A stretch of 64,000 nucleotides of DNA from a virus (lineage: Duplodnaviria > Caudoviricetes). The notes beneath the pieces were generated by a model. The model ran no database searches. It was not told where the DNA came from and saw only the letters and a program-made list of their open reading frames with translations. The stretch lies in IMG/VR virus record IMGVR_UViG_3300009183_004565, one strand, 5' to 3'. The translations under genes were made by a program, and so were the position numbers. This document shows positions 37,830 through 56,675 of this stretch, piece after piece. Each line of letters begins with the position of its first letter. Position 1 is the first letter of the stretch.

Positions 37830-38137
37830 TAGGATACTGTAATGGGTAGTGAACAGTTGTACTTTGTAATTGGATTCTTGCTAGGCACTATCATCACAGG
37901 ATGTCTGTGTATGATAGGGTTTATCGTGTGGCATGAATGGTTTTATCGACCACCGCAGCAGGAAGAATAGTGTCAGTGTATGTTTGGACATTGGTAGTTT
38001 TTATATATGCTGATGGAGTATGGCGTGATTGGCGCAGCTACAATCGTCTTGAAGAATGTTTAGAAGCAGCTCATGTTATATCGTATCGTAGAGCAGATGT
38101 ACTTGACGTTAAATGTGAGCGTAGAGAAGTAAAATAA

Positions 38138-38444
38138 GAATTGTTGTAATTCCTTTAAAGCAAAGGCATGTTGGACGGGGTTTCGATACCCCCATCTCCA
38201 CCAGAAGCACATTATGGAGTTACCCGCTACACTACTAAAGGATCGCTACCTTTAGTAATATACAACGTGTGGTAGTGTGTTTCTGATGGGGATGAATTGG
38301 TTTCGACAGCGTGAGATAGTAGAGAAGGCAACACGGTAGGCGATCTCCGTAAAAGAAGCAAAACTCGTAACTGCAAACGATAGTTACTACGCAATGGCCG
38401 CTTGAGCCAAAGCCGGGGGTAGCGCCTTGTTAACCAATAGCTAG
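38138..38444 (+). ncRNA. ssrA: Circularly permuted (two-piece) tmRNA; tag ANDSYYAMAA
   Basis: T-arm and CATCTCC-A-CCA (38177-38203) precede GGGGATG (38288-38294), forming a 7-bp acceptor stem with G3.U70; tag ORF 38373-38405 after TAACT resume motif; 5' boundary approximate. Confidence 0.9.
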
Positions 38445-38469
38445 AATAGGACCTTCGGGTCCTATTTTT
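38445..38469 (+). terminator. Intrinsic terminator after tmRNA
   Basis: AATAGGACC-TTCG-GGTCCTATT-TTT. Confidence 0.85.
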
Positions 38470-52721: not shown

Positions 52722-53382
52722 CATGAATGCCATTGTTGTAGGAGGGGGATCTAAGTTTGGCCAATTTGTTGTTGATAGTTTAAGGTCTTTAGATTATCAG
52801 GTTTACGTTCTGAGTCATCAAGATTACAACACTGGCGATCCTACACATTTAAGTGCTGATTTTAAAAATACCAATAGTGTTAAATCTCAATTTCAAAAAA
52901 TACTAGAACAAATTGACACGTTAGATTTATTTTTATACGTGTCAAATTTTGACTTTGGACCCGGAAAACCGGAACACTTTGGGTTATTAACTTCGACAGT
53001 TGAAAAAATGTGGTTTGACACAACTAGAGTAAACGTCGTACTACCGCATGAATTATCTTTACTGGCCTTACGAAAAACTCACAATGATAGTAAAATTGTC
53101 TTTATGGCATCAGGCTTGGCTTATGAATTTGAAAGAACTGACTACACTGAAATGGCTGCTTATGCAGGATCAAAAGCAGCACTAAATCATTTGATGACAG
53201 CATTATCTGCGCACAACAAAGAAATCATATGTGCTCTAAGTCCACACTTTCCGGCCGATGAAGAATTAAAAATTAAAGAATATCAATTTGCGTTTAATCG
53301 ATTGGTTTCATTGACTCGTGCCGATAAAGGTAAAATTATAAAACTATATCTTGAAAGCCCGCATAGGCTACAAAATCATTAA
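52705..53382 (+). CDS. Short-chain dehydrogenase/reductase
   Basis: VVGGGSKFG Rossmann motif, YAGSK (YxxxK). Confidence 0.8.
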   Translation: MNEKNSMNAIVVGGGSKFGQFVVDSLRSLDYQVYVLSHQDYNTGDPTHLSADFKNTNSVKSQFQKILEQIDTLDLFLYVSNFDFGPGKPEHFGLLTSTVEKMWFDTTRVNVVLPHELSLLALRKTHNDSKIVFMASGLAYEFERTDYTEMAAYAGSKAALNHLMTALSAHNKEIICALSPHFPADEELKIKEYQFAFNRLVSLTRADKGKIIKLYLESPHRLQNH

Positions 53383-53425
53383 CAAACTAGCAACATTGTT
53401 GCTAAAGATGCAACAAAATAAATAG

Positions 53426-53454
53426 TTGACCATTAATCAGTATTTTGCTATACT
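53426..53454 (+). promoter_or_regulatory. Sigma70 promoter for tRNA/ncRNA cluster
   Basis: TTGACC-17-TATACT. Confidence 0.65.
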
Positions 53455-53622
53455 ATTGAAACTGTGTAAAACAACACAGCCCGTGCAGTAACAAAAACGT
53501 TCTATAACAATTTAGAAGTTTAATACAAAAAGACAACGCATCAGGACCTAGTCCTTCTCTGCGACACAACACAAACGGCACACCAGGACTTGGCTCCTTC
53601 TCTGTGCAGTTTAAAAATTTTT

Positions 53623-53706
53623 GCCTGGGTGGTGTAATGGTAGCCACGCTGGTCTTAGAAGCCAGTGTCGAAAGACGTGCGAGTTCGAGTCTCGCCCCAG
53701 GCACCA
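53623..53706 (+). tRNA. tRNA-Leu(TAG)
   Basis: Cloverleaf, anticodon loop CT-TAG-AA, long variable arm, CCA end. Confidence 0.95.
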
Positions 53707-53777
53707 TATTAAAACACATTTCGAACGGTGAAAGTCCGTCCCAAAGATTTATCTAGGATAGTGTGTTTCAATATGGT

Positions 53778-54205
53778 AGAGACACAAGGGAGTGGGTAGG
53801 CCCGCCGCGTTAGCACCACGTAAGGCATCCTTGTTATACTTAATGTTGGAGTAAGGACCAACCTACCAACCAAACGTTCCAGCGTCACTGGATACTCTGA
53901 CCCAGAGGATGAGAAGTGGTATGACAACCACGGGTGGTACCGTTCCAACCGAAAGTGCGCTGGCAATGCGAGAACGGACCCTGTTGTGGAGCGGGTGGAG
54001 GCCGTAGCAATACGGTATAATTACCGCCAGGGGTCGCAGAGCATTTAACTTGAGTTATGGCAAGAGGTCCATAAACGGGAGTGTAACCCGATGGATACAG
54101 AACATAAGTATTCAACGTGAATGAGCCTTGTTTGACCGTAGAGTTTAGGCAAGAAACACATAACGAAACGGCAGGCGTTAAACAGGATTACAATCGCCTA
54201 GGTAA
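53778..54205 (+). ncRNA. Candidate large structured ncRNA (GOLLD/ROOL-like context)
   Basis: GC-richer stretch between tRNAs with no credible ORF, many complementary segments and possible pseudoknots; boundaries approximate. Confidence 0.55.
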
Positions 54206-54216
54206 TCAATAATTAT

Positions 54217-54291
54217 GCACCGTTCGTCTATCGGTTAGGACACCCGCCTTTCACGCAGGTAAGAGGAGTTCGATTCTCCTACGGTGTACCA
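54217..54291 (+). tRNA. tRNA-Glu(TTC)
   Basis: Anticodon loop CT-TTC-AC, CCA end. Confidence 0.93.
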
Positions 54292-54300
54292 AGTTTTAAA

Positions 54301-54375
54301 GCGGGCGTAACTCAGAGGTAGAGTGTCAGCCTTCCAAGCTGTTCGTCGCAGGTTCGAATCCTGTCGCCCGCTCCA
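54301..54375 (+). tRNA. tRNA-Gly(TCC)
   Basis: Anticodon loop CT-TCC-AA, U discriminator, CCA end. Confidence 0.95.
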
Positions 54376-54384
54376 ATTTCCCAA

Positions 54385-54413
54385 TTGACCATAATTCCTT
54401 TTTATCATATAAT
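54385..54413 (+). promoter_or_regulatory. Early sigma70 promoter cassette
   Basis: TTGACC-17-TATAAT. Confidence 0.7.
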
Positions 54414-54442
54414 ATGTGTAGTTCAATTACAAGGAGTTTTAC

Positions 54443-55678
54443 GTGGGTACAGCAATTTCAACAAAATCAATGAATGCAGTAAAAAATGCTTACATTGATT
54501 GGCGATTTGATCAACCCAACGATTTTAATTTACTAGGACAACCAGTTAACTCTTTGGCAGCAATAAAGCCCATGATTAACCAGATCAAGTCCGACGGATT
54601 TACGGGTATTGTTTTAAACACCAATGTGCCCATCGATCCCGAAACTGGTCGATTGACTCTTTATGATCCTGCTCCTGGTGCGTTTATTACTAATAAAAAT
54701 GTACCTGCGGACACTTGGGCTGTGATAAAACATGCTAAAAAAAGTGGTTTAGCTGTTACACTTAATCTTAATATTGTTGATTATAGAAATGATAAGGCAC
54801 TTACTGCTGACTCTGTAGGCAGTGGTTTTTCAACTGATACCTTTTTTAAAGATGTTGCCAGTTATGAAGCCATGCTTGCTGGTAAAGCTAAATCAAGTGG
54901 CGTTAATGTAATAGGTATTGGCGTGTGTCAATATGGGCTAGACACTGATGCATATAAAGAACAATGGCAAACTATTATTAATGCTATACGTAAAAATTAC
55001 TCAGGTAAACTGACATACTCATCCGGAGAATATAGTACTCCGGTCTGGTCTATGGTTGATATTGTTAGCACCGTAGGTTGGGATAATGTAGGCGGAGCAC
55101 TAGACAGAATGAACTCTTTAGCAGATACCTATCGTAAACCAGTATATATAGATAGTGTTACTGCTGGTGGTGGCGAAGGACAAGCAGCAAGGATTAGAGA
55201 TATAATAAAGGCGTCGATCATTGACCGTAAAGAAGATCTAGCCGGACTATCATTTCATGAATTTGCACCATGGCAACAATCCAACTGGATTGTAAACCCG
55301 CAAACAGAAAACGATAAACAATGGTTGGCCTCAAATAATTATTCAAATGACCTTTATAACAAAGAAGCAGCAAATGCGTTAACAAACTGGTTTAATTATT
55401 CTACAGCTCCTATCAACGGGTCAAAAAAGAATGATAGACTTAAAGTATATGCCGGAGATAAAACAGTAGATGGTGGCAAAGGCGTTGATACTGTAGTGGT
55501 ATTAAATAAAGCAAAGGACTGTCAATTGTCTTTTGACAGTCCGGGAAGTTTTACATTAGTAAACAACACAGAAGGTACTAACAAGTTACTTAACTGTGAA
55601 TATATCCAATTTATGGATACACGGGTTAGTTTAATTGGACGCCAAGACTATAGCCAATACGGTTGGACGTCATGGTAA
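54443..55678 (+). CDS. GH113/GTA-type TIM-barrel protein with RTX-like C-terminus
   Basis: FF..A.YE.MLA..A...GV...IG; W..II..IR..YSGKLTY; GGKGVDTV tail. Confidence 0.55.
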   Translation: MGTAISTKSMNAVKNAYIDWRFDQPNDFNLLGQPVNSLAAIKPMINQIKSDGFTGIVLNTNVPIDPETGRLTLYDPAPGAFITNKNVPADTWAVIKHAKKSGLAVTLNLNIVDYRNDKALTADSVGSGFSTDTFFKDVASYEAMLAGKAKSSGVNVIGIGVCQYGLDTDAYKEQWQTIINAIRKNYSGKLTYSSGEYSTPVWSMVDIVSTVGWDNVGGALDRMNSLADTYRKPVYIDSVTAGGGEGQAARIRDIIKASIIDRKEDLAGLSFHEFAPWQQSNWIVNPQTENDKQWLASNNYSNDLYNKEAANALTNWFNYSTAPINGSKKNDRLKVYAGDKTVDGGKGVDTVVVLNKAKDCQLSFDSPGSFTLVNNTEGTNKLLNCEYIQFMDTRVSLIGRQDYSQYGWTSW

Positions 55679-56111: not shown

Positions 56112-56675
56112 ATGCCAGCAGTATTTCTTGTAAGTGACACGCATTTTGGTCACGCTGGCGTTTGCCGCTTCTTGCGTAACGACGGTGTAACTAAACTGCG
56201 TCCTTGGGATAATCCTGAGGAAATGGACGAGTTTATGGTCAAGGCCTGGAACGAGCGTGTTCGGCCCAACGACAAAGTGTACCATCTTGGTGACGTTGTT
56301 ATCAACAGACGGGCACTTGCTACACTTGAACGTCTAAACGGTGACAAAGTTTTAATACGTGGTAACCACGATATCTTCCGTGACGACGAATATAGAAAGT
56401 ACTTCCGTGAACTACGTGCGTATCATGTCATGAACGGAATGATACTGAGCCATATTCCCATACACGAAGAAAGTCTGGGTCGCTTTGGTACCAACATACA
56501 CGGACATCTACATAGCAACAGAGTTATGAAAGATGGTGCAGTTGACGTTAGATACCATTGCGTCTGCGTAGAACAAACAGACTTTGCGCCCATCTTGTTT
56601 GAAGATGTTATCAAGCGTATCACGGCAGAAGGTGGTAGTATAGGCTTCAAAAACGGTAACGGCCCTACAATGTAA
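56112..56675 (+). CDS. Calcineurin-like phosphoesterase
   Basis: SDTHFGH, HLGD, RGNHD, SHIP, HGHLH. Confidence 0.88.
   Translation: MPAVFLVSDTHFGHAGVCRFLRNDGVTKLRPWDNPEEMDEFMVKAWNERVRPNDKVYHLGDVVINRRALATLERLNGDKVLIRGNHDIFRDDEYRKYFRELRAYHVMNGMILSHIPIHEESLGRFGTNIHGHLHSNRVMKDGAVDVRYHCVCVEQTDFAPILFEDVIKRITAEGGSIGFKNGNGPTM

Follow-up and report, generated by a model that had tools for sequence, protein, structure and literature searches.

The locus analysed here raises the question of what a phage keeps in a 510-nt gap (53707-54216) of its tRNA array, between the genes for tRNA-Leu(UAG) and tRNA-Glu. Positions refer to the window, by which the whole analysed stretch of 64,000 nucleotides is meant. 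The initial annotation had described 53778-54205 as an ORF-free stretch inside a tRNA array, which was borne out: on the + strand of the gap between the two tRNA genes, no ORF longer than 32 aa was present. It had further proposed that the stretch encodes one large, pseudoknotted noncoding RNA of about 430 nt, belonging either to the giant ornate RNAs (GOLLD, ROOL) or to a new class. The analysis supported the presence of structured RNA in the gap and led to a different view of how many RNAs there are and of how they are folded.

Genomic setting and probable transcription unit

The window derives from an uncultured phage with a DnaK gene akin to the DnaK genes of huge phages. Eight tRNA genes were identified in it (ARAGORN, Rfam), all on the + strand. 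A permuted two-piece tmRNA was recognized at 38089-38469 (+) by Rfam (beta_tmRNA, 156.7 bits; tmRNA_permuted, 141.7 bits), with ARAGORN remaining silent, and a tmRNA was likewise present in the related loci L002 and L007. A gene for a calcineurin-like phosphoesterase is located among the tRNA genes at 56112-56675 (+; phrog_547, E 3e-48); assigning it a role in RNA-end healing would be speculation. Inside the tRNA arrays of close relatives, group I introns (RF00028, 52.7-59.2 bits) were detected (L004:4552-4748, L004:5921-6130, and L005:11324-11520).

The gap differs from its flanks in GC content (0.48-0.52 vs. 0.33-0.40, respectively). It is delimited by tRNA genes and preceded by a promoter:

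53426-53454, + strand: sigma-70-type promoter (TTGACC, 17 nt, TATACT, with TG)
53623-53706, + strand: tRNA-Leu, anticodon UAG (ARAGORN; Rfam tRNA, 56.1 bits), the upstream boundary
54217-54375, + strand: tRNA-Glu (UUC) at 54217-54291, then tRNA-Gly (UCC) (ARAGORN, Rfam), the downstream boundary

The predicted promoter at 53426-53454 probably drives the whole RNA operon. The next promoter on the + strand was found at 54385-54413, with no terminator-like site on that strand between the two. Because neither a promoter nor a terminator intervenes on the + strand before 54385, the tRNA-Leu, the RNA modules of the gap, the tRNA-Glu, and the tRNA-Gly probably form one transcript.

When 53300-54450 was compared to Rfam 15 with cmscan, only the three tRNAs and a chance match to Plastid-ycf2 were returned at E ≤ 10, and zero matches inside the gap reached the gathering score. 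With neither GOLLD nor ROOL among the matches of this Infernal search, the assignment to a known giant class was not upheld, while the alternative offered along with it, a class absent from Rfam 15, was. The whole spacer (blastn) and the flanking GH113-like protein (tblastn) both gave zero matches among 50,697 GenBank phages, and the search for related IMG/VR loci via the flanking proteins retrieved none. Folding energies in the gap were no better than those of shuffled sequences (z −0.97 for the whole gap and −0.7 to −1.2 for its parts). With the exception of a trailer hairpin behind tRNA-Leu, the evidence for structure is therefore comparative.

A family of phage RNAs with covarying helices

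Homologs were retrieved from IMG/VR by three pattern scans with different anchors, giving 11, 71, and >117 loci (the third number being counted among the matches listed, chance matches included). From a MAFFT alignment of 54 distinct copies, a covariance model with 206 positions and 40 pairs was built (R1). A search of the whole window with R1 produced one match:

53872-54048, + strand: core RNA, 177 nt (R1 model, 193.8 bits, E 2e-55, model positions 1-206)

The members of this family are 176-284 nt long, and within the MAFFT set their lengths differ by 1-2 nt. Conservation sets in just past an ACGU near 53875 and continues up to the end of an invariant tail near 54044. Big insertions in the P3 or P4 loop were seen in the members L096, L161, L162, L168, L145, and L101, which measure 257-284 nt.

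Among 91 distinct full-length members, aligned by fitting to R1, 99.2% of the pair cells were paired and 31 of the 40 pairs showed compensatory changes. None of 500 shuffles was as good (0/500), and sliding the partners by 1-3 columns lowered the paired fraction to 35-48%. As this alignment had been fitted to the model, the count was repeated on a MAFFT-only alignment, in which 98.4% of the cells were paired and 24 of the 40 pairs were compensatory; stacked covarying pairs are already visible in the plain MAFFT alignment of the 54 distinct copies. The frequent G-U pairs in the helices fix the RNA on the + strand. The initial annotation had called for a search for covariation among homologs. 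Such covariation was found both in the core (the 31 of 40 pairs given above) and in a second RNA immediately 3' of it (11 of 27 pairs), and it backs the underlying notion of a structured, pseudoknotted noncoding RNA in a phage tRNA cluster.

About half of the core positions are nearly invariant, mainly in junctions and loops, and the conservation of the junctions is at the level of catalytic RNAs. All homologs were retrieved with exact-match patterns, which makes the conservation of the anchor motifs partly a matter of construction. Among all 91 members the junctions hardly vary, even in sequences retrieved by an anchor that does not contain them, and in the third scan, made with a different anchor, the earlier anchor motifs were still nearly unchanged.

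On this comparative evidence, the core is assigned to a widespread family of predicted phage RNAs that has no entry in Rfam and is represented on more than 100 IMG/VR phage contigs. Eight pattern matches were obtained in 185,579 genomes of prokaryote species (one genome each); all of them failed R1 and had no tRNAs nearby. As far as tested, the core RNA appears to be phage-restricted. It was present as one copy each in G003 (92% complete) and G004 (100% complete), with genomes of 320 and 353 kb.

Architecture of the core RNA

The model of the core comprises five local hairpins, one long three-part arm (P5-P6-P7) with conserved bulges, and a kissing loop. Helices P1-P7 all form in the window copy, bar two mismatched pairs in P4:

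53878-82/53888-92, + strand: P1 (R1 model, covariation)
53895-98/53904-07, + strand: P2 (R1 model), with an invariant five-base loop, GACCC
53916-20/53927-31, + strand: P3 (R1 model)
53940-44/53953-57, + strand: P4 (R1 model)
53940-53957, + strand: mismatches in P4 of the window copy (53941 with 53956, 53942 with 53955)
53958-60/53968-70, + strand: P4a (R1 model), with a seven-base loop
53977-82/54030-35 plus 53985-86/54028-29, + strand: P5 (R1 model)
53991-94/54024-27, + strand: P6 (R1 model)
54001-06/54011-16, + strand: P7 (R1 model), with a GCAA loop
53884-53925, + strand: kissing-loop pseudoknot of 4 bp between the P1 loop (53884-87) and the P3 loop (53922-25)

Across the family, 94.8% of the kissing-loop cells are paired, despite a register slip of the AACG/CGUU type, and 18 cells are changed on both sides. 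The loops switch jointly between members, with the forms GUC/GAC, AUC/GAU, and AACG/CGUU. Pseudoknots, as predicted initially, do exist in this stretch, namely this kissing loop and an H-type knot at 54173-54207; they are different from those drawn in the initial annotation.

The ten helices listed there fared unevenly. Compensatory changes uphold five of them: GTGGT/ACCAC is P3, CCGTA-GCAA-TACGG is P7, and TTATGG/CCATAA, CGGG/CCCG, and AGGCG/CGCCT all belong to the second RNA, termed the 3' module. ACAAGG/CCTTGT stands by conservation, with no covariation. The remaining four fail, including both long-range helices of the core. The strands of CCAGCG/CGCTGG belong to two separate local hairpins, P1 and P4a, each of which covaries within itself throughout the family; their mutual pairing is part of the minimum-energy fold, and one subclade could form it, whereas other subclades could not. 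In place of CTCTGACCC/GGGTCGCAGAG, the family forms the local hairpin P2 (CTCT/AGAG) and P5, in which GGGTC pairs with 53977-82. In CCGTTC/GAACGG, the GAACGG strand is invariant, while the strand assigned to it varies and takes part in the local helix P4; only the window copy could form this pairing. As for GGTAGG/CCTACC, the partner of CTACC is GGTAG at 53776-80. Two further pairings were evaluated: no covariation was found between the 5' ACGU and the AGAACG junction, and a pairing of the 3' tail with 53892-99 was rejected since it is not maintained.

The window copy carries the majority form of the invariant elements, i.e., the P2 loop GACCC, two GGGUGG motifs, the P4a loop, and the 3' tail. 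In most members, P7 appears to extend into a longer arm with a kink-turn-like base and a tip that is often a GNRA loop; the window copy is without this long k-turn-bearing arm and has the short GCAA-capped P7 instead. In the divergent members L001 and L121, three elements are altered jointly, namely the P2 loop, the P4 loop, and J3/4 (the first GGGUGG junction). This hints at a contact among the three, although the joint change in the two members may be one evolutionary event.

The two mismatches in P4 are unique to the window among the 54 sequences. In this P4, the 5' strand resembles the type seen in L026/L028, and the 3' strand the type seen in L002. At 53941-42, a ~96% alike contig from a freshwater RNA library has A and C, by which the P4 pairs are restored. 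In view of the two mismatches, the window copy may be impaired. A T-box identity was also considered, as GGGUGGUACCG of the window resembles the T-box core; it was rejected because other members differ after GGGUGGUA and no Rfam match was obtained.

Modules flanking the core

Further elements were delineated on either side of the core:

53703-53777, + strand: long trailer hairpin, in which the CCA end of tRNA-Leu and the trailer pair with 53761-53777 (z −3.07 vs. shuffles)
53775-53868, + strand: 5' module, a putative tRNA-like minihelix (closing stem 53776-80/53863-67, then ACCA; inner stems 53785-90/53829-34 and 53845-49/53858-62)
54049-54209, + strand: 3' module (hairpins 54055-60/54069-74, 54076-79/54087-90, and 54093-98/54108-13; H-type pseudoknot)
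54173-77/54195-99 crossing 54186-91/54202-07, + strand: H-type pseudoknot of the 3' module (MAFFT alignment)

The stem of the trailer hairpin has 17-18 bp and encloses a variable loop. It recurs in L004, L005, and L007, and elsewhere in L002, L008, and L009, with compensatory changes between the window and L005. Its recurrence behind several tRNAs and ahead of RNA modules would suit an element of processing or punctuation. An RNase P identity was tried for GGUGAAAGUCCG at 53727-38 and rejected: this is the loop of a small hairpin in the trailer stem, and no model matches.

Of the features of a tRNA, the 5' module has an acceptor-like stem with ACCA only, and no tRNA was called in 53707-54216 by ARAGORN or by Rfam RF00005. 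A copy that is 96% identical lies at L056:3441-3535, ~690 nt from the core of that locus and followed by tRNA-Glu. In L002 and L008 the stems of the module are kept around a different interior, and in L004, L005, and L007 only the closing hairpin with ACCA is present. A pattern scan for the module led to L056 only, the pattern being too strict for the L002/L008 variant. By its predicted form, the module may be a tRNA-like minihelix serving as a processing signal.

The 3' module lies directly behind the core in L004 and L005 (96% identical), upstream of the core in L027 and L028, and between other tRNAs in L183 and L184. It is also present in a complete phage record of 170 kb (G001), from which the core is absent. 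In six of its seven copies (window, L005, L027, L028, L183, and L184; L004, 96% identical to the window, was left out), 98.8% of the pair cells were paired and 11 of 27 pairs were compensatory, vs. 27-42% paired in slid controls. These copies show the 3' module to be an independent second RNA with a predicted pseudoknot. At its junction with the core, no tRNA-like punctuation was found in the window, and the two abut in L004 and L005 as well; owing to this lack of punctuation, both may stay joined in the window as an RNA of ~340 nt.

The single RNA of ~430 nt proposed initially could therefore not be retained, as its parts occur apart and in other orders and no covarying pair links them. By the distribution and alignment of its predicted parts, the stretch is a set of three separately occurring modules of ~95, 177, and 160 nt rather than one 430-nt unit.

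Genomic slot of the core RNA

All of the 1154 tRNAs in the 91 member loci (1154/1154) are on the same strand as the core RNA. In 45 of the 91 loci an upstream tRNA (tRNA-Tyr more often than any other) has its 3' end ≤2 nt from the start of the member, and in 36 of the 91 the member ends ≤5 nt from the next tRNA; the arrays concerned hold up to 30 tRNAs. Most members are without a 5' or 3' module and directly abut tRNAs. The core of the window is on the strand of its tRNAs too, 165 nt and 168 nt from the nearest ones, with the other modules intervening. In members without an upstream tRNA, promoter-like hexamers end a few nt before model position 1. From its slot, strand, and copy number, the core thus behaves as a phage gene that sits tRNA-like in the tRNA array.

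Clustering of the neighbouring genes at the 91 loci revealed no constant protein neighbour. The commonest one was a calcineurin-like phosphoesterase, encoded within 4 kb in 22 of the 91 loci and in each case on the same strand; MazG-like, RNase H-like, and HNH genes were rarer neighbours. Just 3' of the core in L001 (3810-3970, RNA orientation), a GC-rich conserved block of ~160 nt was noticed, and likewise in L002, L008, L015, L029, L060, and L081. It fills the 161-163 nt between the core and the tRNA, has no Rfam match, and is unlike the 3' module of the window; the block probably represents another uncatalogued RNA in such arrays.

Transcription evidence from public sequencing runs

Evidence at the RNA level was taken from Logan assembled contigs, with small word shares. 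Such contigs carry no information on ends, strand, or abundance, and parts that they leave uncovered are uninformative. The contig of ~96% likeness mentioned above, 197 nt long and from a freshwater metatranscriptome, spans 53820-53999 with eight differences and so runs from the 5' module into the core; it may stem from DNA carry-over. Another RNA run covers 54164-54298 with one difference. Close relatives of the locus are present in RNA libraries. A contig from a probable DNA run joins 53710 to 54215 with two other letters between them, a weak match whose shorter side has only 34 letters. Taken at face value, this join means that a relative has tRNA-Leu beside tRNA-Glu, without the 504-nt RNA block.

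Proposed explanation and its alternatives

The best explanation overall, which we consider likely, is that several small RNA genes, separate from each other, are strung together here within one phage tRNA operon and give rise to stable processed RNAs. The order would be tRNA-Leu, trailer hairpin, minihelix module, 177-nt core, 160-nt second RNA, tRNA-Glu, and tRNA-Gly. Transcripts of tRNA operons are processed by RNase P cutting and by trimming at CCA ends, and this machinery would release the RNAs from the polycistronic transcript. The 3' end of the core would be set by the RNase P cut at the next tRNA and its 5' end by trimming at the preceding CCA end or minihelix; where no tRNA lies upstream, the core RNA would start at its own promoter. 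With regard to function, we tentatively propose, as a possibility that is still rather doubtful, that the core adopts a compact fold and has a conserved target in trans, one connected with tRNA or translation, rather than acting as a gene leader. This target could be the end of the tRNA itself or a protein that modifies, repairs, or cleaves tRNAs. That the core is itself an active RNA on the co-transcribed tRNAs, as a ribozyme or a binder of tRNA 3' ends, seems improbable. The two invariant GGGUGG motifs of the core are reminiscent of the GGU and UGGN elements by which the CCA end is bound in RNase P RNA and in T-box leaders. If the core did act on tRNAs, the RNA at 54049-54209 and the CCA-ended minihelix could be further parts of a phage RNA-processing toolkit.

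These readings have to be weighed against several others. A single ornate RNA of ~430 nt, belonging to or resembling the GOLLD/ROOL classes, would suit a stretch that is contiguous, ORF-free, and without an internal promoter or terminator. It would also suit the location in a phage tRNA cluster, where GOLLD and ROOL are often found (PMC12286853), the unpunctuated abutment of the core and the 3' module in three loci, and the RNA-library contig that bridges the 5' module and the core. We nevertheless judge it very improbable, and largely refuted already by the separate occurrence of the modules: these are reordered between loci, in one complete phage the 3' module is present and the core absent, most core members are flanked directly by tRNAs, the long-range helices fail with no covarying pair between modules to take their place, and Rfam gave no match at E ≤ 10. 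Still less credible, to the point of being negligible, is that the conservation stems from a protein gene on the minus strand or from a site acting at the DNA level. ORFs of 85 and 76 aa do overlap the region on the minus strand of the window, and antisense ORFs of ≥70 aa exist at 36 of the 91 member loci. At the other 55 loci there is no such ORF, however, and the antisense ORFs are an artefact of conservation. In addition, members vary in length by 1-2 nt, compensatory substitutions are seen across helices, the many G-U pairs would be C-A on the other strand, and the scanned proteins of the window (all ORFs outside the stretch) showed no link to the region.

If the core is an RNA gene, it could yet serve in cis, as a riboswitch or processing signal in the leader of a downstream gene or of the tRNAs. 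The very high conservation of its unpaired junctions is aptamer-like, a U-rich run often follows the invariant 3' tail, and about 11 of the 91 members have a MazG-like ORF ~30 nt downstream, so that a cis role is conceivable. The downstream element is too variable, however, for the core to be a leader: it is a tRNA directly in 36 of the 91 loci and otherwise other RNA modules or unrelated ORFs. No conserved alternative pairing of the terminator/anti-terminator type was found, the possible partner of the tail (53892-99) covaries with P2 and not with the tail, and the U-run is 8 nt past the last helix. A leader function is hence unlikely. Slightly less so, although still unlikely, is a decoy or inhibitor of a host defence that targets tRNAs, such as an anticodon nuclease. 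Phage tRNAs counter tRNA-targeting host defences, and the core would be carried like spare tRNAs. This would agree with its tRNA slot in arrays of up to 30 tRNAs, its restriction to phages as far as tested, and its presence or absence between related phages, as suggested by the probable DNA contig that joins 53710 to 54215. On the other hand, no cloverleaf or anticodon-arm mimic was detected in the core by ARAGORN or Rfam, no linked defence or anti-defence gene was found at the 91 loci, and the conservation across very different phages exceeds what would be expected from an arms race.

Comparison with known systems

Phage tRNA islands carry several enigmatic RNAs (GOLLD, ROOL, and T4 RNAC and RNAD) whose functions have stayed open for decades. 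The core family adds a further RNA that is smaller and far more constrained in sequence, with unusually clean covariation and a kissing loop; most members also have a predicted kink-turn arm, and the family is spread over many large environmental phages in the exact slot of a tRNA. The window also illustrates that such arrays may bear several different uncatalogued RNAs side by side, swapped as cassettes. With a size of ~180-200 nt, the core is tractable for structure determination and for tests of RNA tools against tRNAs or host defences, and the R1 model is usable to annotate phage genomes.

GOLLD (RF02032) and ROOL (RF03087) are structured, pseudoknotted RNAs of phages and prophages that are often located beside tRNA islands and whose function is unknown (PMC12286853). 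They share with the core the phage origin, the proximity to tRNA genes, and the pseudoknots. They differ in giving no match at E ≤ 10 and in size, exceeding 500-800 nt as compared to ~180-280 nt for the core. Instead of the single RNA of >500 nt with many conserved helices that would characterize these classes, the gap holds modules of ~95, 177, and 160 nt that occur apart. RNAC and RNAD of T4 (species 1 and 2 RNAs) are small stable RNAs of unknown role in the tRNA region of that phage (PMC3014915). Located on the tRNA strand and abutting tRNA-Arg, they resemble the core by position only: a search of the T4 tRNA locus (L072) with R1 gave no match, and the conserved motifs of the family were absent by eye. 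A further point of comparison is the catalogue of structured RNAs from IMG/VR, with 8495 candidates of 29-151 nt (Fremin et al., 2023; PMC10690425). It shares its data source and type of evidence with the core family, differs from it in the length of its entries, and may hold a fragment of it.
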